Virus record (IMG/VR): IMGVR_UViG_3300015214_000034
Location: 4,313 to 68,312 of that record
Length of the DNA stretch: 64,000 nt
Source of the DNA: a virus
Taxonomy: Duplodnaviria > Caudoviricetes
Reading direction: 5' to 3' (one strand)
In this document: one piece after another, positions 42,900-53,508 of the stretch
Layout of the letters: every line of letters starts with the position of its first letter
How positions within the stretch are numbered: position 1 is the first letter of the stretch
Notes under the pieces: model-generated
Databases searched by the model: none
Told to the model about the DNA's origin: nothing
What the model saw: only the letters and a program-made list of their open reading frames with translations
Position numbers and translations under genes: made by a program

Positions 42900-44483
42900 T
42901 CAACTCGCTCCCCACGGATCATCATCGGTCGCCGGCTCCGGCGCGTCGTCGATGTCGTCCATTTCCTCGGGCGCGGCGTTCTGGGCGACCGGCACGGTGC
43001 CGACAAGCGCCTGAAATGCCCGGCTGCTGGCGTCCACCTGATCCTTGTATGTGCCGGACGGGAAGTTGCGGAGTTCCTCGATATAGGCGGCGTTCCAGTC
43101 GCCCCGGACCAGATGGACGCGCTCGGCCCCGACCTGTGCGGCAAACGGATCGGCGCGCGTCACCTTGTCGCCCGTCTCCGGGGTGCAGATGAAATTGAAG
43201 CCCATCAGGATCTCCGACACGCGCCACTTGAACGCCTTGCCGCCGAATCCCGGGTCTTGAGGGATGCTGATCTTGACCGTCGGGATTTCGTTCCGGTCAT
43301 TGATCGAAACCTCCTCGATCATCGTCTCGACTTCGGTCGGATTGGCGCGCCGCCGCTCGACGTGGCGGATATAGACATCGCCGCCGACGCGGGTCATCAG
43401 GACGCGCACGGTGTAGGGCGATTTCTTCCGCTTGCTGCCGGCCAAGTCCCACCCGGCCCATGTCACGCCGCCAGCCGGCACATGGTCCACGATGTCGATG
43501 TGCTCGACCTTGAACATGCCGCCTTCGCGCGGGGCCGGCCGCTGCTGATACTGGCCGGCATACATGTAATCGCCGGATTTCTTAACGTCCTCGGTGACGG
43601 CCGGGCCGGCGCGCACCGGGTCCATCAGTTCGCCCTCATAGGAGCGCGGGTCGGCCCAGTCCTTCGTCTTGCCCGGGCGATCTGGGTCGGGGACTTGCAG
43701 CGGTGTCGTGCAGCGCCGGGCCGTCTCGAACTCGTTGGGGATCATCAGATGGACGAACCCATAGTCGCGGGCGAGGATGACGCCGGTCAGATCTTCCTCG
43801 TGCAAGCGCTGCATGACGATCACGATGGCCGACGTTTCCCAGTCATTGATGCGGTTCAGGCCGCCCTCAATGAACTTGCGGGTAGCGTTGTCGCGCTGCG
43901 TCTCGGATTCGGCCCCATCGACGCTGTGCGGATCGTCCACGATCAGGCGGTCGCCGCGCTTGCCGGTCACGGACTTGAAGGCGACGCCGAGACGCGAGCC
44001 GGTGTCGTAATTGCTGAACGACTGCACGCCTTCAGTCTTGAGTTCGACCTCCGGCCACAGCGATTGGAACCATTCGGAGCGGACCAGATCGAGCGTCTTG
44101 CTGGTATCGCGCTTGACGTTGGACAGATCGAACGACGTGCTGACAAAGCGCAGGTGGCGCTTGCCGAGCGGACCCCATTCCCACGCCTGCCACATCACCG
44201 AGACGATGGTCGATTTCGACGAGCCGGGCGGCACGTTGATGATCAGACGCGGTTTCAGCTTGCCCCGGCTGATCGCCTCCAGATGGTCGCACATGGCTTG
44301 CATGTGCCAGTTCCAGCGCAGCCGCGTGCCCGGCTCGATGACCTTCCACGCTTCCTGCACGAACTCGGCGAACGACTGACAGCGGCGGCGGACGCCATCG
44401 GCATCGGCCCGGGCCTCGTCCAGCATCGCGGCCTCTTGCCGGCGCGCGATCTCCTCCCGGTAGAACTTGGTTGAGAGCGCCAT
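42900..44483 (-). CDS. terL: Terminase large subunit
   Basis: LIINVPPGSSKST Walker A; LIVDDP Walker B; YQQRP; WDLA; FPSGTYKDQVDA. Confidence 0.95.
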   Translation of the reverse strand: MALSTKFYREEIARRQEAAMLDEARADADGVRRRCQSFAEFVQEAWKVIEPGTRLRWNWHMQAMCDHLEAISRGKLKPRLIINVPPGSSKSTIVSVMWQAWEWGPLGKRHLRFVSTSFDLSNVKRDTSKTLDLVRSEWFQSLWPEVELKTEGVQSFSNYDTGSRLGVAFKSVTGKRGDRLIVDDPHSVDGAESETQRDNATRKFIEGGLNRINDWETSAIVIVMQRLHEEDLTGVILARDYGFVHLMIPNEFETARRCTTPLQVPDPDRPGKTKDWADPRSYEGELMDPVRAGPAVTEDVKKSGDYMYAGQYQQRPAPREGGMFKVEHIDIVDHVPAGGVTWAGWDLAGSKRKKSPYTVRVLMTRVGGDVYIRHVERRRANPTEVETMIEEVSINDRNEIPTVKISIPQDPGFGGKAFKWRVSEILMGFNFICTPETGDKVTRADPFAAQVGAERVHLVRGDWNAAYIEELRNFPSGTYKDQVDASSRAFQALVGTVPVAQNAAPEEMDDIDDAPEPATDDDPWGAS

Positions 44484-44514
44484 CGGCTCCCGGATCAGGG
44501 TCGCGCCCTGATCG

Positions 44515-45045
44515 TCAGTCGTCAGCGCTGCCATCGACAATCTCGTCGGGGTCCAGCCCCTCGGCGAGCGCAGCGAGGCGGCCATACTCGGCAAGCTGTT
44601 CGTCGGTCAGGCGCGACAGATCGGGGGCAGGGCCGCCGAACGGCTGGCGAGCCTTGTCGCCGACTTCCACCTTGGTCGTCCAGCCGCCAAGCCGGGCCAG
44701 GATGAACTTCTGCGCGTCCAGATCGCCCTTCGCCGTCTCGCTTTCCGCGTTCAGGGCGCGGTTGATCACCTGCGAGCCGACGCTGGCCAGCATTTCGGCT
44801 CGGCCGAGTTCCAGATCATCGGAGAAGTGCCGGCGCAGAGTGTCGCGGCTGACGCCGATCAGGCGGGCGATGTAGTGCTCGCCATGGACCGGGAAGGTCT
44901 TGGCATAGGTGCGGACCTTGAGCCGCTGCTCCTCGGTCGGCACGAACGGCGGGTTGCCGAACTGCCCCTTGGGCGCGCCTCGGGCATCATCGTCCCGCGT
45001 CTTCTGGTTGTGCGCGGTGAGGGGCTTTTCTGGCGTGGTGGACAT
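44515..45045 (-). CDS. terS: Terminase small subunit
   Basis: HTH IARLIGVSRDTLRRHF..EL..G; directly upstream of terL. Confidence 0.85.
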   Translation of the reverse strand: MSTTPEKPLTAHNQKTRDDDARGAPKGQFGNPPFVPTEEQRLKVRTYAKTFPVHGEHYIARLIGVSRDTLRRHFSDDLELGRAEMLASVGSQVINRALNAESETAKGDLDAQKFILARLGGWTTKVEVGDKARQPFGGPAPDLSRLTDEQLAEYGRLAALAEGLDPDEIVDGSADD

Positions 45046-46229: not shown

Positions 46230-46444
46230 TGGCCCGCGTCCGCCCCACCAACAGCCGCCTCGCCCACGCCAGCGCGCAGGGCATGGCCGACGCCAAGGCG
46301 CTTGAGGGCATCATGTCCCGGGCCGTCGATGGCGTCCCGGCCGAGGCTGATCGCCCCATGCTGGTCGCCATCGCCAAGCGCCTCCCCGCGCCCGTCCGCG
46401 ATCAGGTCCGCGCCGTGCTGACCAAGGCCGGAGAGGCGTTCTGA
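46229..46444 (+). CDS. Hypothetical protein
   Basis: TGATG-coupled. Confidence 0.55.
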   Translation: MARVRPTNSRLAHASAQGMADAKALEGIMSRAVDGVPAEADRPMLVAIAKRLPAPVRDQVRAVLTKAGEAF

Positions 46445-47049
46445 TGCGCCCGGCCGAGGGTATCGAGATCCCCATGGCGCTCCGCAAGCGGCCGAAGGAT
46501 CGCCGGGGCTACCCCATCCCATTCATCGTCCTGCTGGACGCCAACAAGCGCCCGCATTTCACGATCAACAACGGCCAGCGCGTCCTCGACGCCGGCCGCA
46601 AGAAGCTGTGCGGGCTGTGCGGGGGAAAGCTGCGGGGCGACATCGCTCTGGTTGGCGGGCCGATCTGTTTCCTGTCGCCGATGGGGGCGTTCAGCGATCC
46701 GCCCATGCACGCCGAGTGCGCGCGCTACGCGATCAGGGTGTGCCCCTATCTGGCCGCGCCGTCCTATGGGAAGCGGATCGACGACCGGACGCTGACCCCC
46801 GGGGCGACGCCGGGCGGCGTGATGATCAAGACCGAGATCGCCGTGGCCGAGGACCGGCCGGTCGCCTTCATGCTTGGCACCACAGATCGCGTCGAAATGT
46901 TCCTGCGGCCGGACGGCGCGCCCCTGTTCCGCTGCGCCGGGCGCTGGACTAATCTGGAGGTATGGCAGGCCGGCCAGCGGCTTGAGGGCGAGGCCATGGA
47001 GGCCGCGCTTGCCGCCGACCGCGCCCGGTCGGTCTATTCCTCGGGCTGA
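46444..47049 (+). CDS. Conserved phage Cys/His protein
   Basis: RGYPIPF; LCGLCG; PPMHAECARYA..CPYL. Confidence 0.7.
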   Translation: MRPAEGIEIPMALRKRPKDRRGYPIPFIVLLDANKRPHFTINNGQRVLDAGRKKLCGLCGGKLRGDIALVGGPICFLSPMGAFSDPPMHAECARYAIRVCPYLAAPSYGKRIDDRTLTPGATPGGVMIKTEIAVAEDRPVAFMLGTTDRVEMFLRPDGAPLFRCAGRWTNLEVWQAGQRLEGEAMEAALAADRARSVYSSG

Positions 47050-48938
47050 TCGCCCTCCCCCACCGTCTCCTCGAATCGGGCCAGTGCGTCGGAAACGTCC
47101 ACTGGCCCGAGCGCTTCCACAGCCTTGCGCGGATCGCCCTTCACGAAGACAAGCACGTTCTGATGAGTCTTGCCCAACTTGCGGGTGGACCTGAACTGCT
47201 TGGCCGTCCTGATGGGGAGCGAGCCGACCGACGTGATCAGGATCGCCTCGTTGTAGAGCGGGGCACCCGCCGCCTCGAACGCGGCAATCGTCTTGCTGAC
47301 GAAATTGGCGTAGATGCCGCGCTTGTCCCGGTAATCGCCGACCACGAAACAGGCGAACCGATTGTCGGCCAGCCGGGCGACCGCCTTGGCGATGATCTCG
47401 GCGTAGATCGCGTCGAACCCGGCCATGTCGAGCGTGCTGATGTCGTCGGGGTCGTCGCTATAGACCTCCAGATCGCCGTAGGGCGGGCACGAGAACACGA
47501 AATCGAAGTCGTCGCCGATGGCCTCGTCCGCCAGCACCTTGTTGCTGTCGCCGACGTGCCAGATCGGCTCGACAGGCGCGAAGGCCGGCTGCGGCTCGAT
47601 GTCGGCCCCGAGGTTCCAGAACAGCGCGCCCGGGGCGGCGTGTTCCCTGATGAAGCGCCACGCCTTGGCGTCGTAATTGCTGCACGACGGGAAGGGCGGC
47701 GGGTCAGTCGCGTCGTCCTCGAACGCCTCCGGGGCCTTCCACAGCTTGGCCTCGCCGACATCGGGGTCGCGGCCGACCTGAACGGCGTGATGGGCGGCGT
47801 CGGGGAAGGCGCGCTGTAGCGCCCGGGTCAGCGTGCCCGAGCCGGCGACGCACCAAACCTCGGTCGGGGCCTCGCCTGGCAGGGCCGCGATTTCCTGCGC
47901 CATCGCATCGACGAAGATCTCGTCGTCCATGCCGAAGGGGACCAGATAGGCCCCGGTGGCCTCGCAGTGCTTGCGCGCCCGGGACTGGATCACGTTCAGC
48001 CGGCCGGCTTTGACCTCGACGATGTTCGCGCCCAGATCGGCGGCGAGTTGCGTCCGGGGGTGCCGGTCGGAGCGCGCGGCCACGAAGATCGTCGCCTTCT
48101 TGCCAGCGGCCCGGCAGGCCCCGGCGAGCGCGATCTGTGCGAAGCCATAGGCCGGCGTCGCATAGACCAGTTCGTCGGCGTCGATGCCGGCGACAAGGCG
48201 GTCCAGCGCCCGGCGCTTGGTCCCGCCGAGGACGCGATCATCGCGGACGACCCTGATGCCCTCGATCTCATCGACCGCCAGCGCCGGAACTTCCTCGGCC
48301 GCGCGGGGAGCCGGCGTGCCAAGCTGTGCGGCGACAGCGGGCCATTGCGCCCGGTTCGCCTCGATCTGTTCGGCGCGCAGATCGACGCCGGTATAGTGCC
48401 GGCCGAGCGCGGCGCAGACGATCCCGCGCACCGAGCCGCCAGCGAAGGGGTCCAGCACCCGGCCGCCGACCGGGCTGAACCAGCGGTAGGCCAGTTCGCA
48501 CAGCACCGGGTCGAAGATCGACGTGCCGCTGGACAGTTCGGAGTCTGGCAGCACCCAATGATCGCGCTCGAACTCCTCGGGGGTCAGCTTGCGGCCCACC
48601 TTGGCCTCGGCCGCCGTTTTCTGTTCATAGTAGCGGGGGTGGCTGGACAGGGCGTCCATGGTGACGCCGCCCAAGCCCTTCTTGCGGCCGGTCACGGCGT
48701 TCGTGCCCTCGCCGCGCATGAGATCTTGCCCGAACGTCCGGGCCTTGCCCTTCGCCTCCTCCCGGGCGGCCTGCATCGCGGCGCGCTTCTCCGGGTCCGG
48801 CTCCAGCATCGTGTCGGACATGCCGAGCAGGTTCTCGCCGCGCCCGACCTCGGACTTGATGCCGAGCGCCAGCCATGCTCGCTTGCGGTCCATCCACCAT
48901 CCCTCGCGGGCGTTCAGCACGGTGAAGGGCGGGATCAT
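47034..48938 (-). CDS. Amino (N4/N6) DNA methyltransferase with inserted PLP-dependent (fold II) domain
   Basis: TSIFDPVLCE, VLDPFAGGSVRG (motif I), FSCPPY (motif IV); insert VVRDD..GGTKRR...VAGSGT...NYDAKAW. Confidence 0.85.
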   Translation of the reverse strand: MIPPFTVLNAREGWWMDRKRAWLALGIKSEVGRGENLLGMSDTMLEPDPEKRAAMQAAREEAKGKARTFGQDLMRGEGTNAVTGRKKGLGGVTMDALSSHPRYYEQKTAAEAKVGRKLTPEEFERDHWVLPDSELSSGTSIFDPVLCELAYRWFSPVGGRVLDPFAGGSVRGIVCAALGRHYTGVDLRAEQIEANRAQWPAVAAQLGTPAPRAAEEVPALAVDEIEGIRVVRDDRVLGGTKRRALDRLVAGIDADELVYATPAYGFAQIALAGACRAAGKKATIFVAARSDRHPRTQLAADLGANIVEVKAGRLNVIQSRARKHCEATGAYLVPFGMDDEIFVDAMAQEIAALPGEAPTEVWCVAGSGTLTRALQRAFPDAAHHAVQVGRDPDVGEAKLWKAPEAFEDDATDPPPFPSCSNYDAKAWRFIREHAAPGALFWNLGADIEPQPAFAPVEPIWHVGDSNKVLADEAIGDDFDFVFSCPPYGDLEVYSDDPDDISTLDMAGFDAIYAEIIAKAVARLADNRFACFVVGDYRDKRGIYANFVSKTIAAFEAAGAPLYNEAILITSVGSLPIRTAKQFRSTRKLGKTHQNVLVFVKGDPRKAVEALGPVDVSDALARFEETVGEGDQPEE

Positions 48939-48939
48939 G

Positions 48940-49266
48940 AACTCGTTGGCCAGCGAGCCGCCGCCTTGCTTCTTGCCGGCCGGTGCCGTCGATCACCGGG
49001 ACGGTGCCCTTGGGGATGGCCGTGCCGCCGCGCTCCTTGCCCGGGGCGAGGTAGATCGTGCCGCCCTCGGCGTAGATCGCCCGCGCCGCCATCTGCCGGC
49101 CGTGGCCCGCCCTGATCAGATCGTCGGCCAGGACGGGGTTAGTCCAGCCGAACCGCTCGATGCTGGCCACGATCTGGGCGACTTGCGCCTCGCTATGGGT
49201 GCGGGCGTTCCGGGGGTCCGGGGTCAGTTCGTCGATCTTGCGGAGCAGCACCTTGGGCGCGGTCAT
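48940..49266 (-). pseudogene. ParB N-terminal domain, truncated/frameshifted relative to the downstream MTase
   Basis: LTPDPRNARTHSEAQVAQIVASIERFGWTNPVL..IRAGHGR; homology stops near VPVIDGTG and the MTase frame is closed by TGA just upstream. Confidence 0.65.
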
Positions 49267-49718
49267 GGGGTCCATCCTTGTTTGCGGGCGAAAGTCTCGA
49301 TCTGCGTCACCCCTGTGCTGATCGCGTCGGCCAGCGTCCCGTCCACATGGACATTGGCGAAGGCGCGCTGCCCTCCCTCATGGGGGAACAGCATTTCGAC
49401 GCGGACGCAGGGGCGGCCGTCGGTATGGGTGAAGCGGCGGGCGTGGACGACCGGCTCGAAATCGTCGGGCAGATCGGTGACGCCAAGCTGGACGACCGGG
49501 TGCTGCTGGCCGGCGACGCCGAGCGTCAGGCGCGCCCCGGCGTAGAGCAGCGCGGCCTCGCCGTGATCAACCTCCCAAGCGGAGCGCATGTAGTGCACGC
49601 CGTCGATCTGCTCGCGCCGGATGAACAGCGCTCCGCAATGGCCAGACTCGGCCTCGTTCCAGTCTGGCGGTGCGCCCAATGGGCGGGGGTCTGCCCCTGC
49701 GATGCGTGTCGGCCTCAT
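49263..49718 (-). CDS. Hypothetical protein
   Basis: LGAPPDW...CGAL.I..E....MRSAWE....E...L..GA...L...G..HPVV phage motif. Confidence 0.65.
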   Translation of the reverse strand: MRPTRIAGADPRPLGAPPDWNEAESGHCGALFIRREQIDGVHYMRSAWEVDHGEAALLYAGARLTLGVAGQQHPVVQLGVTDLPDDFEPVVHARRFTHTDGRPCVRVEMLFPHEGGQRAFANVHVDGTLADAISTGVTQIETFARKQGWTP

Positions 49719-50508: not shown

Positions 50509-50710
50509 CCTTTGGCCTTTCGATTGGCAGGGCCTCGCGTTGGCCCGGTGTCTTGATAGCGCCCCCGAACTTGCGTCGTCGATAGTCCATGACCTCGGCC
50601 GCGATCTTCGCCTCGGCCGCCTCGCGCGCGCGCCGGACGCGCCAGCGCCAGACCAGCCACCCGGGGACCGGGGCGAACGTGGTCAGCAGCGTCCATTCCC
50701 ACCACGTCAT
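50495..50710 (-). CDS. Small membrane-anchored protein
   Basis: MTWWEWTLLTTFAPVPGWLVW. Confidence 0.5.
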   Translation of the reverse strand: MTWWEWTLLTTFAPVPGWLVWRWRVRRAREAAEAKIAAEVMDYRRRKFGGAIKTPGQREALPIERPKGENQ

Positions 50711-51723
50711 CGGCCGCACCTGATCGCTGTGTCGGTGCCGCCGACGCCGCACTCGCCCTCGGCCTCAAGGTGCATCGGGTCGATGGGGATGAGGAGCGGC
50801 TGGCGGGCGACATCGCGCTTGATCGTCTCGTAGCGATACTCGGTGACGAAGCGGGCACCGTTCGGGTTGGTCGCCAGTTCGGAGCCGAGATCCTCCATCG
50901 CAATCCAGTCGTCGATGCTGTCCGGTCGTTCCCGCTCCTGATACGCCAGCACGTCCAGCCCCTTGAGAAAGCAATAATCGCAGTTGCCCTCGTAGGGCCA
51001 GAGGCCCAGATCAAAGCCCTGCGGCAGGGGGTGCGTCAAGGCTTTCGGGTTGATGTTCTCGCCGAGCCAGAAACGCCAGATATCCCGCTTTGTGATCCGC
51101 GCCCGCAACATCGGCCATGCCGAGCGCCACCGCTCCTTGCCTTCCTCGTTGCGCTTTTGCTGCTTGGCGATCCGCCGCATTTCATCAGATCGCAGCCCGA
51201 CGACATTGGTCCATGCGTCGTAGCCGTGGGACAGCATGAATTGCTTCATGGTGTCGATCTTGAGTTCGGCCGTGCAGAACCGGGAGACGGCGTTCGGCAG
51301 ATATCGCTTGCGCCTGATCAGGGCGCGGAACGGTTCGCCGCGCCGGGCCGCGCTGTTGTAGCCGACGACATCGAAGCGGTCGGCGGCGGGCGTGTCCTTG
51401 CCCTCCCGGTCCTTCCACTCCAGCCACCACACCCGGACGCCCCAACGGCTCTCGCACTCATGGACGAAGCGCAGCGTCTCCTCGCGCTCCTTGCCGGTGT
51501 TGGCGAACGTGACCCATACCCCGGCCGGCAGGACGCCGCCGTGCGCCCACAAGTGCTGGAACAGCATGAATCCCGATGTCCGGCCGCCGCTGAACGAGAT
51601 CAGGGCCGGGGTCTCCAGCCAATAGGGCGACGACGGGTCCGGGGCCGGCCAGATGATCGAGCCGTCGGGCCTGCGGGGAACCGGGAAATCGAGGCCGGGG
51701 ACGGATAGCGGGGCACGCTTCAT
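50707..51723 (-). CDS. PAPS-reductase/PP-loop family protein
   Basis: ISFSGGRTS PP-loop; FANTGKE; RFCTAELKI; GLRSDE; GNCDYCFLK. Confidence 0.85.
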   Translation of the reverse strand: MKRAPLSVPGLDFPVPRRPDGSIIWPAPDPSSPYWLETPALISFSGGRTSGFMLFQHLWAHGGVLPAGVWVTFANTGKEREETLRFVHECESRWGVRVWWLEWKDREGKDTPAADRFDVVGYNSAARRGEPFRALIRRKRYLPNAVSRFCTAELKIDTMKQFMLSHGYDAWTNVVGLRSDEMRRIAKQQKRNEEGKERWRSAWPMLRARITKRDIWRFWLGENINPKALTHPLPQGFDLGLWPYEGNCDYCFLKGLDVLAYQERERPDSIDDWIAMEDLGSELATNPNGARFVTEYRYETIKRDVARQPLLIPIDPMHLEAEGECGVGGTDTAIRCGR

Positions 51724-52715
51724 CGGTTGCACCACACATCGAGCCAGTCCTCGCCAGACTTGGCCGGGATATGGACGATGATCTCCGGGGCGTTCGGCCG
51801 AACCGCCTGCCGGTGCGCCAGTTCCCATGCCGCTGCCTGCCCGCCGAACTTGGGGTCGTTATCCCCGAAGATCACCAGCCGGCGCAGTCCTTTGGGCGGC
51901 ACGAACTTGGCCAACATCGACGAGTTGATCAGCGCCCATGTAGGCAGGCGCGACCAGCGGGCGACGGCAAGCGCCGTCTCGATCCCCTCGGCGACCGCAA
52001 GCACGTCAGTGGCGGGCGACAGCCTGATCGCGGAGCCTGGCCGGAGATCGCCGGGCATCAGCTTGCGCGATGACACCCGCTTGCGCTCCGCGTCCCACAG
52101 ATCGGCCTTGCGCGGCCCGTCCAGATAGGTGCGATGGAGCGTCGCCAGATCTCCGTCCGGCCCGCTGACCGCCGCGAGCATCGCCGGGCAGGCCGAGCGC
52201 ATCGGCACATCGGACAGCATCGCGGCCGGATGGAAGCGCAGGGCCTCCGATCTGACCCCGGGCAAACCTCGGGCGGTCAGATAATCGTCGGCCATGGTGC
52301 CGCCCAGATCGCGGGCCTCGTCCCATGTCCGGCGCACGAGCCAGTCTATCGCGCCCTGCCCCGACGAGCCGGGGGCCGTCTTGATCGCTTGCGGCAGGAT
52401 ATTGCGGACCTCGGCGGCGGCGGTGCGGAAATCCCAACCATGGAGGGCCATCAGCAGCGCGACCCCCGAGCCGGAACCACATTGGTTGCAGATGAACGTC
52501 CCGTTCTGTTTCCAGTCGGTGAAGCGAAAGCGGTCCTTGCCGCCACACATCGGGCAAGGCCCATGCTTGCCGGTCAGCGCCTTGGCCGGGACGCCGAGCC
52601 GCGACAGGATCGACGGCCAGCGCCCCCGGGCCTCCTCCATGATATCAGGCCGGGGTGGTTTCAGTCCCGCTCTCACCACGGCCAGCGGCACTCCATCAGT
52701 TCGAACCAGCGCCAT
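51720..52715 (-). CDS. DNA primase (zinc ribbon + Toprim)
   Basis: HGPCPMCGGKDRFRF..CNQCG; VAEGIETAL; IFGDND. Confidence 0.92.
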   Translation of the reverse strand: MALVRTDGVPLAVVRAGLKPPRPDIMEEARGRWPSILSRLGVPAKALTGKHGPCPMCGGKDRFRFTDWKQNGTFICNQCGSGSGVALLMALHGWDFRTAAAEVRNILPQAIKTAPGSSGQGAIDWLVRRTWDEARDLGGTMADDYLTARGLPGVRSEALRFHPAAMLSDVPMRSACPAMLAAVSGPDGDLATLHRTYLDGPRKADLWDAERKRVSSRKLMPGDLRPGSAIRLSPATDVLAVAEGIETALAVARWSRLPTWALINSSMLAKFVPPKGLRRLVIFGDNDPKFGGQAAAWELAHRQAVRPNAPEIIVHIPAKSGEDWLDVWCNR

Positions 52716-52864
52716 GTCGTCGGTTCATTGTCGCGGCGCGCGGCCTGATAGGGATTGTGGCTCCAGCGGACCCACCGCCGCCAGTTCGACAGCCGCCAGT
52801 CGCGCAGCATCAGGACTTGCAGATGATGGGTGCCGAAGCGGACGTTCAGCCATGTGTTCGACAT
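52673..52864 (-). CDS. Small Trp/Arg-rich hypothetical protein
   Basis: CACCACCACGGAGG RBS. Confidence 0.5.
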   Translation of the reverse strand: MSNTWLNVRFGTHHLQVLMLRDWRLSNWRRWVRWSHNPYQAARRDNEPTTWRWFELMECRWPW

Positions 52865-53508
52865 AGGGGCCTCCGTGGTGGTGCGAACAGATCGTCTTGC
52901 GACGCCGCCCGACTCAATAGCGGGAGCGTCTTGGCGAACCTAGTCGCGCTGGTCCCGTCTATCGAGTCAATGCCGCCAGCGGCACAAAGCGCGATCCGCC
53001 TGGCCGTGTTGACCCGGCCGCAATGGACATACAGGCCCCGGGACTTGGCCCATCGGCCCCACGGCTCGATGGCCGCGATCTTCCATTCGGTGCTACCCCC
53101 GATGAACAGGCCGATGCGCGGGCTGGTCAGCAGCGGCTCGATGTCGGCGAACTCCATGCCGTCCTGCACCGCGATCAGCAGGCGGGCGTCGCCCAGATCG
53201 GCGCGGGCCAGCAGGCGGGGGAGCCATGCCCGGGTGCGCTCCAAGCTGGCCGGGCCGTCCCCGACGATATCTGGCACAACGATGAAATCTGCCCCCGGGC
53301 CGTAGCGATCAAGGGCGCGCAGGAACGCCGCCTCGTCCCACTCGATCCCCTGCGCGAAGGCGGGCCAAGCCCCATTGTCCAGCGCCCACGGCATGTCGCC
53401 GAGGATCGGCCCGCCCATGTCGAGGGGACCGACCATCCAGCCCCACCCGGCAGCGGCGAGCGCAGCGATGTTGCGGCGGGTGCCGGTGCGGGAGGCGTAG
53501 CAGCGCAT
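52846..53508 (-). CDS. TGT/DpdA-like base-exchange transglycosylase (putative)
   Basis: WALDNGAW, VPDIVGD, AVQDG, FIGGSTEWK, HCGRVN, GIDSIDGT pattern. Confidence 0.6.
   Translation of the reverse strand: MRCYASRTGTRRNIAALAAAGWGWMVGPLDMGGPILGDMPWALDNGAWPAFAQGIEWDEAAFLRALDRYGPGADFIVVPDIVGDGPASLERTRAWLPRLLARADLGDARLLIAVQDGMEFADIEPLLTSPRIGLFIGGSTEWKIAAIEPWGRWAKSRGLYVHCGRVNTARRIALCAAGGIDSIDGTSATRFAKTLPLLSRAASQDDLFAPPRRPLCRTHG

Follow-up and report, generated by a model that had tools for sequence, protein, structure and literature searches.

A pyridoxal-phosphate enzyme domain nested in a phage methyltransferase-type protein: a candidate DNA-modification module of the ParB-terminase locus

Results

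A methyltransferase-type protein with a nested PLP-enzyme domain

The window analysed here is a 64 kb stretch out of the 68,312-nt virus record IMGVR_UViG_3300015214_000034 (Duplodnaviria; Caudoviricetes), a metagenome-assembled genome with direct terminal repeats that is rated complete by CheckV. It is related to the Erythrobacter siphophages vB_EliS-R6L and ZS04, whose gp1-type protein shares about 91% identity with the product of an open reading frame (ORF) at 47034-48938. This ORF encodes P0001, a protein of 634 residues in which a whole pyridoxal 5'-phosphate (PLP) enzyme domain is nested inside a methyltransferase-type core. An earlier sequence-only reading of the window had proposed this arrangement, and it is borne out by the ORF itself, by matches to Pfam PALP and phrog_7093, and by AlphaFold2 and Foldseek. 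The motifs quoted in that reading, including the codon of the PLP lysine, were all recovered in place on translation. The gene comprises the following features:

47034..48938, minus strand: 634-residue ORF (P0001) with an internal ATG start; PPF motif region, methyltransferase-type core and nested PLP domain
48819..48938, minus strand: conserved N-terminal element IPPFTVLNAREGWW.RKRAW..LGI.SE.GR (near-invariant columns in alignment A1)
48324..48536, minus strand: S-adenosylmethionine (SAM)-binding half of the core, motifs X, I and II (Pfam N6_N4_Mtase; aligns with the C-terminal part of 2zie)
48435-48452, minus strand: motif I, DPFAGG (translation check)
47568..48317, minus strand: nested mini-PALP (fold-type II PLP) domain, residues 208-457, with its core at residues 218-444 (47607-48287)
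48216-48218, minus strand: Schiff-base lysine K241, in VVRDD..GGTKRR (translation)
47832-47843, minus strand: GSGT loop (translation)
47664-47675, minus strand: YDAK (translation)
47103..47576, minus strand: catalytic half of the core, motifs III-VIII, with WHVGDS then FSCPPY (aligns with the N-terminal part of 2zie)
47478-47489, minus strand: CPPY of motif IV (translation check)

The methyltransferase-type core is recognized by Pfam N6_N4_Mtase (PF01555) at 34.9 bits, against a cut-off of 26.7, over residues 154-194 only, with DPFAGGS present. In a PDB sequence search, residues 103-190 align with the C-terminal portion of TTHA0409, an enzyme of the beta class (PDB ID: 2zie), and residues 460-514 with its N-terminal portion. 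Because the two halves of 2zie align in swapped order, the motifs of the core run X-I-II-III-IV...VIII, an order that Iyer and Aravind class as Group 1, unpermuted. Motif IV reads (S/T)CPPY in 120/120 family members examined, with or without the insert; the cysteine is aligned to the serine of SPPY in 2zie, the usual form of this motif being (D/N/S)PP(Y/F/W). We found no measured product for any (S/T)CPPY family member in the literature. The N-terminal IPPFTVLNAREGWW (PPF) element would be at the place expected for the DNA-recognition part of this methyltransferase family, and in many loci it is encoded together with ParB on a separate gene. In one further protein, P0101 (719 residues), the whole unit of PPF motif and (S/T)CPPY methyltransferase is duplicated in tandem.

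The boundaries of the nested domain are defined by P0057, an 80% identical orthologue encoded on a sister phage contig (L007), which differs from P0001 by a clean 250-residue indel at P0001 residues 208-457. The insertion site follows motif II (GVDLR...EQIEAN) and precedes motif III (WHVGDS), with motif IV coming shortly after; the sequence-only reading had placed it between motifs I and IV, which the indel corrects to this narrower interval. The same point is where permuted beta-class methyltransferases have their chain ends. In P0111 and P0119, members of the same methyltransferase family, the insertion site holds a second, divergent PLP subtype (KR(E/D)DL...G.K.R..., Y-E-A-K).

Assignment of the insert as a PLP enzyme is well beyond chance. 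Pfam PALP (PF00291) scores 37.1 bits over residues 269-393, above its cut-off of 35 (E 3e-9). The AlphaFold2 model has a predicted local distance difference test score (pLDDT) above 90 across the insert, and a Foldseek search with this model returned at least 500 matches at E <= 0.001, all of those among the matches listed being PALP enzymes. The PALP fold, on which the sequence-only reading had staked its proposal, is therefore present. The top structural matches are D-cysteine desulfhydrase (4d8t/4d8w, E 2e-9) and the 1-aminocyclopropane-1-carboxylate (ACC) deaminase homologue 1j0a; target-normalised TM-scores are 0.5-0.61 (0.61 for 1j0a), and identity to 4d8t and 1j0a is 15-18%. In alignments, K241 falls in the region of the PLP lysine of TrpB and 1j0a, the GSGT loop pairs with AAGSGGT of 1j0a, and VRDD..GGTKRR of the insert matches the KRDDL..GGNK.RK motif seen in 1j0a; YDAK may be the counterpart of the YTGK/YEGK motif. 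G239, K241, G366-S367-G368, Y422 and K425 are invariant in 37 homologues with identity down to 43% (alignment A1), and the lysine is also invariant in 71 stand-alone members (alignment A2). As read from these alignments, the domain retains every residue needed for PLP binding and is predicted to bind the cofactor.

The sequence-only reading had further assigned the insert to the ACC deaminase/D-cysteine desulfhydrase group. These are indeed its nearest solved folds, and the 1j0a motif is present; the family assignment itself holds only loosely. An NCBIfam search of the insert matched no ACC deaminase or DcyD model, the best scores being 20.6 bits for serine/threonine dehydratase (cut-off 331) and 14.6 for threonine synthase (cut-off 301). 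At 225-250 residues the insert is also about 100 residues shorter than ACC deaminase and DcyD (about 320-340 residues), and it falls into a distinct family, described below.

The nested domain is related to phage M6 gp52

The insert matches phrog_7093, a profile labelled "threonine dehydratase", along the whole profile (E 4.5e-40 to 9e-41), the stronger match covering positions 16-278 of 279. The full-length founder of this profile is gp52 of Pseudomonas phage M6 (YP_001294560; E 2e-159). Identity between insert and gp52 is only about 26%, and the relationship is recovered by profile methods: hhalign of alignment A2 against gp52 gave a probability of 98.5 (E 2.6e-15, 220 columns), and a mini-PALP hidden Markov model (HMM) matched gp52 at E 2.6e-21. 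In the hhalign columns K241 aligns with gp52 K36, and a C-terminal signature, PFP(S/C)..YD.KAW...FWN.G, is common to both. Judged from these alignments, M6 gp52 is the closest characterised relative of the insert. Together with ViI gp226, gp52 is a yellow, PLP-containing protein, and the pure enzymes decarboxylate Calpha-glycinyl-thymidine and O-serinyl-thymidine in DNA (Lee et al. 2021, PMC8989533).

Searched exhaustively with HMMER, the insert gave 1360 clusters (50% identity) at E-values of 0.001 or lower. Most of the proteins among the best 150 matches, which were inspected, are stand-alone proteins of about 235 residues, and the nearest protein-atlas clusters of the insert are mainly viral. 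The insert, on this sampling, is best described as belonging to a distinct, mostly viral mini-PALP family. The P0111/P0119 subtype is as distant from the main group of this family as is M6 gp52. The stand-alone PALPs adjacent to methyltransferases are basic (median isoelectric point 9.5) and the nested ones acidic (median 5.8); the basic character of the former may hint at a need of their own for DNA affinity and lends slight support to action on DNA. Mini-PALPs were also seen in two cellular-looking settings (L008:4955-7109 and L005:5001-5705), one flanked by a DAO-type FAD oxidoreductase and a glyoxalase, the other near gatCAB.

The PLP enzyme travels with one methyltransferase family

The sequence-only reading had suggested a survey for the same fusion, and we approached this from both sides. 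Eighty viral loci were fetched through a mini-PALP signature derived from a 9-sequence alignment (PALP-anchored sample), and 79 loci were drawn from at least 577 stretches of the methyltransferase family in IMG/VR (methyltransferase-anchored sample), giving 159 loci in all. A same-strand (S/T)CPPY core is fused or adjacent to the PLP enzyme in 76 of the 80 PALP-anchored loci, with the PLP domain nested in 7, the core upstream in 48 and downstream in 21. In phages the PLP enzyme is thus almost always fused to, or encoded beside, a member of this single methyltransferase family, and the several arrangements arose independently.

These arrangements are diverse. The ParB-PPF element, the PALP and the methyltransferase core occur as three successive genes in L035-L042 and L044 (for example L040:5185-7552), and ParB-PPF is split from the core in many further loci; such split-gene forms suggest a multi-subunit enzyme. 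Database proteins include both C-terminal and N-terminal fusions of the PLP domain to the same methyltransferase, as well as fusions to YunG and DUF3102 domains. In P0203 (2261 residues) a superfamily 2 (SF2) helicase and a PCIF1-type adenine-N6 methyltransferase region are followed by a C-terminal mini-PALP; this methyltransferase type is unrelated to the (S/T)CPPY core and is therefore a second methyltransferase fused to the same PLP family. With gp52 as the root, a tree of the 324 PLP domains has one main nested clade, holding 79 of 85 tips (support 0.79), the other nested forms being a few small clades and the divergent P0111/P0119 type. The seven C-terminal fusions are scattered in the tree, and seven changes are counted by parsimony.

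No third gene was conserved with the pair in the 159 loci beyond terminase and lineage-specific small ORFs. Likewise, phmmer searches, which have single-sequence sensitivity only, recovered no homologues of M6 gp51, gp53, gp54, gp55 or gp58 in the window or in the 80 PALP-anchored loci. The partners of the thymidine pathway thereby missing are the amino-acid:DNA transferase, the 5-hydroxymethyldeoxyuridine (5-hmdU) kinase, the radical SAM isomerase and the dUMP hydroxymethylase.

Genomic setting and the disrupted copy in this record

The gene is set in a ParB-terminase locus, with terminase genes at 42900..45045 on the same strand just downstream. The features flanking the methyltransferase gene are:

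48976..49275, minus strand: ParB N-terminal domain fragment, the first ~100 codons of the ancestral 811-residue gene
48979..48986, minus strand: deletion junction (located by blastn comparison with L002, the contig carrying intact P0003, and by three-frame translation)
44515-45045, minus strand: terminase small-subunit candidate, downstream of the methyltransferase gene
42900-44594, minus strand: terminase large subunit, downstream; Terminase_6C on the equivalent gene in L002 and L007

The copy of the gene in the window is disrupted, which the sequence-only reading had left unremarked. Intact relatives are 811-814 residues long, 97-99% identical, and include an N-terminal ParB domain; P0001 corresponds to residues 178-811 of one of them, P0002, with 99% identity and no gaps, and its ORF represents only the downstream 78% of the ancestral gene. 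The ParB piece lies in another ORF (48625-49275, minus strand), which continues out of frame past the junction to 48625. This fragment is 94% identical to P0002 residues 1-103, has the GHGR box, and matches phrog_498, phrog_620 and phrog_15396 at E 8e-18 to 6e-17. Between two 8-nt direct repeat copies, GCACCGGC, 203 nt are missing and the frame is shifted; the lost segment is equivalent to about codons 97-164 of intact relatives, the linker between ParB and the methyltransferase. The methyltransferase part also matches phrog_498 (E 6e-89), with the profile interrupted by about 220 residues in P0001. A single protein joining ParB and methyltransferase next to the terminase is accordingly found in the intact relatives; in the window the ParB part is in a different frame.

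At best, the 634-residue form without ParB is the most that this genome makes. The gene in this record may be a dead remnant, either through loss of function by the 203-nt frameshift or as an assembly artefact, a reading to which we give somewhat less than an even chance. The deletion is restricted to this record among close relatives, those at 97-99% identity being intact at 811-814 residues; there is 8-nt microhomology at the junction, no clear ribosome-binding site was seen ahead of the internal ATG, and the record is a metagenome-assembled virus genome. Against this, the 634-residue frame has stayed open and matches its relatives at 99% identity, which indicates a recent event. Nested forms that naturally have no ParB, of 619-723 residues, also exist (P0094-P0109), and many phages encode ParB and the core as separate genes, so the 634-residue product could still be functional if translated.

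Discussion

Proposed action of the two enzymes

The intact protein would have three working parts: an N-terminal ParB domain, a SAM-dependent amino-'methyltransferase' core, and a gp52-type PLP enzyme in the loop before strand 3. We infer that both enzymes may form a single module for DNA modification at the ParB-terminase locus, with the PLP domain processing an alpha-amino-acid group hanging on DNA. That they act jointly on DNA to give a mark other than, or beyond, a methyl group is our favoured reading, held tentatively and at somewhat less than an even chance. The sequence-only reading had suggested that the fusion installs a non-methyl adduct or supplies a substrate for DNA modification; kinship with gp52 strengthens this idea, and the two thirds of the family that have an unchanged core and no PLP partner make plain methylation with a PLP helper a possible alternative.

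A more specific route can be drawn. A gp52-type enzyme requires a primary alpha-amino acid, so that either the methionine-derived end of SAM or a free amino acid is a candidate substrate; given that neither an amino-acid:DNA transferase nor a 5-hmdU kinase nor any further conserved partner was found, the 3-amino-3-carboxypropyl end of SAM is the only evident amino-acid source. In this scheme the core would transfer the 3-amino-3-carboxypropyl group from SAM to a DNA base, and the nested PLP domain would then decarboxylate the adduct on the polymer to leave an aminopropyl group. The product would be an N-(3-aminopropyl) purine or pyrimidine, and family members with no PLP domain would leave the aminocarboxypropyl base. 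There is precedent for such chemistry on another substrate: MccD, which has a methyltransferase fold, transfers aminocarboxypropyl from SAM and MccE-NTD, a PLP enzyme, decarboxylates it on microcin C; Tyw2 provides a Rossmann-fold example of an aminocarboxypropyl transferase (PMC10491745, PMC11350588). The two-step route would explain why the enzymes pair exclusively, why one is nested in the other and why the insert is akin to gp52; it is our preferred one, unproven and, taken in its full detail, unlikely.

A number of observations weigh against joint action on DNA, and against this route in particular. A PLP partner is present in only 27 of the 79 methyltransferase-anchored loci and absent from the other 52, and P0057 has no PLP domain at 80% identity. 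No core columns separate PLP-linked from PLP-less members, the maximum Jensen-Shannon divergence being 0.29 and all such columns variable. Since the core is the same with and without the PLP enzyme, either the whole family transfers aminocarboxypropyl or the PLP enzyme works on something else; the route therefore makes the bold demand that the entire large family, PLP-less members included, carries out this transfer. No motif of an ordinary adenine-N6/cytosine-N4 methyltransferase is missing from the core, and its nearest solved relatives are such enzymes. The predicted template-modelling score (pTM) of the AlphaFold2 model is 0.52. In addition, gp52 is near neutral rather than basic, some mini-PALPs occur in cellular contexts with no methyltransferase nearby, and the window's own copy of the gene is disrupted.

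Several of these points could also be explained if the core carried out plain adenine-N6 or cytosine-N4 methylation and the PLP domain were a helper that acts on S-adenosylhomocysteine (SAH), relieving product inhibition, on SAM, or on some other free amino acid. The identical core motifs with and without the partner, the two thirds of family loci that do without it, and P0057 all fit such an arrangement. The cellular mini-PALPs beside a DAO-type oxidoreductase and glyoxalase suggest free amino-acid substrates, the family probably also having members that act on these, and SAH and SAM would resemble the substrates of gp52, which are amino acids with a nucleobase-bearing side chain. However, the closest characterised relative works on polymeric DNA; repeated fusion, nesting and three-gene forms with DNA-binding parts exceed what co-regulation needs; the stand-alone forms adjacent to methyltransferases are strongly basic; and destruction of SAM beside a SAM-using enzyme would be self-defeating. 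A helper explains the tight physical coupling less well, and we regard it, the main rival, as possible, if doubtful.

Two further explanations give the PLP domain a different role and appear much less probable. It might do no chemistry itself and serve as a structural or regulatory module, for dimerisation or ligand sensing: most fold-type II PLP enzymes form dimers, as do many beta-class methyltransferases, and the insertion is at a permissive loop, the chain-end point of permuted beta-class enzymes. In over 100 diverged sequences neither the Schiff-base lysine nor the phosphate loop nor Y-D-x-K varies; this, the existence of stand-alone forms of the same family, and the catalytic activity of gp52 make such a role very unlikely. 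Chemistry of the ACC deaminase/D-cysteine desulfhydrase type, with ACC opening or removal of sulfur or ammonia from a small amino acid, for instance to feed the 3'-phosphoadenosine 5'-phosphosulfate (PAPS)-reductase-like neighbour at 50707-51828 in a Dnd-like sulfur pathway, would agree with the best structural matches (DcyD and 1j0a), with the RDD..GG.K.R motif as in 1j0a, and with the presence of that neighbour. We consider it the most improbable of the alternatives, as the NCBIfam scores and the shorter domain described above both argue against it, a PAPS-reductase homologue is found in only 2 of the 159 loci, and the PAPS-reductase-like gene also stands beside the PLP-less orthologue.

Comparison with known systems

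To our knowledge, gp52-type enzymes are the only ones that trim amino acids attached to phage DNA, and all known PLP steps belong to thymidine pathways that start from 5-hmdU. The insert resembles gp52 and gp226 in several respects: gp52 shares phrog_7093, full-length homology, the aligned lysine and the C-terminal signature, and all are short fold-type II domains modelled on 1j0a. The characterised enzymes are free-standing and act on thymidine adducts after the 5-hmdU kinase and the amino-acid:DNA transferase, whereas the insert is embedded in, or accompanies, a SAM-dependent methyltransferase-type enzyme and the partners of the thymidine pathway were not found. The adenine-N6-type methyltransferases of the ParB-terminase locus, which are predicted to modify DNA at packaging, are like the intact relatives of P0001 in their ParB N-terminal domain, Group-1 core and place upstream of terminase (Iyer, Zhang and Aravind; PMC4738411). 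The nearest named member is vB_EliS-R6L gp1, annotated as 'DNA modification methylase' (APZ81766); this protein and its ZS04 counterpart carry the same insert. The R6L paper describes ORF1 as a CcrM-like methylase, with the PLP domain unmentioned, and Pam4 gp70 is the only one labelled 'PLP-dependent enzyme'.

MccD and MccE-NTD offer an analogy of function only: their substrate is a peptidyl-nucleotide rather than DNA, MccE-NTD belongs to another PLP fold group, and the order of the two steps in microcin C aminopropylation is debated. Among solved structures, 4d8t and 1j0a are the nearest folds and have the RDDL..GG.K.R lysine motif and the GSG phosphate loop in common with the insert; they are about 100 residues longer, and the nearest characterised relative of the insert decarboxylates and does not deaminate. 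For the core, the beta-class enzyme TTHA0409 (2zie) and N4-cytosine methyltransferases (8s9m) align at motif I (DPFxG) and in the PPY..L..Y.D.P region; relative to the beta class the order is circularly permuted, and motif IV has Cys in place of their Asp, Asn or Ser. We considered M.EcoGIX and M.BceJIII as characterised relatives and rejected them, both being beta-class DPPY enzymes of conjugative plasmids that belong to another family.

Hypermodified DNA lets phages defeat both restriction enzymes and CRISPR nucleases, and the modifications have been a source of new enzymology and tools. We found no description of a ParB-methyltransferase-PLP fusion enzyme in the literature, and no report of an aminocarboxypropyl or aminopropyl base in phage DNA. 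The module is real and widespread, being present on hundreds of viral contigs, and here the same PLP family is tied to a SAM-dependent base-amine transferase with no other partner. If the proposed route were true, SAM would be the amino-acid donor for DNA, the base modification would be of a kind not yet described, and "DNA methylase" annotations across a large phage family would need to be re-read; if the core only methylates, the role of a conserved PLP enzyme inside a methylase is still the question. Carriers are in culture (Erythrobacter phages vB_EliS-R6L and ZS04, and Pseudanabaena phage Pam4), and the module is thus directly testable.

Other genes near the locus

One gene upstream of the ParB-methyltransferase deserves mention:

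50707-51828, minus strand: PAPS-reductase-like PP-loop gene (phrog_424, E 3e-50), ~1.5-2 kb upstream of the ParB-methyltransferase gene

This gene is a feature of the R6L lineage (L002, L007 and L015), where it occurs with or without the PLP insert, and it is unlinked to the PLP enzyme in other phages. A Dnd-like sulfur pathway built from ParB, PLP enzyme and PAPS reductase was rejected as a general explanation on the same two grounds given above, the rarity of PAPS-reductase homologues in the 159 loci and their presence beside the PLP-less orthologue. A link to 7-deazaguanine chemistry was also rejected: DpdM is DUF3109 and unrelated, and the ORF at 52846-53508 (minus strand), which the sequence-only reading had called DpdA/TGT-like, has no Pfam match at E below 0.01. 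In the PLP-less sister phage, an extra small beta-class-like methyltransferase of 206 residues with SPPD and DPFCGRGT lies right after the ParB-methyltransferase (L007:11746-12366, plus strand). The equivalent spot in the window is taken by an opposite-strand, Cys-rich ORF of 201 residues at 46444-47049.

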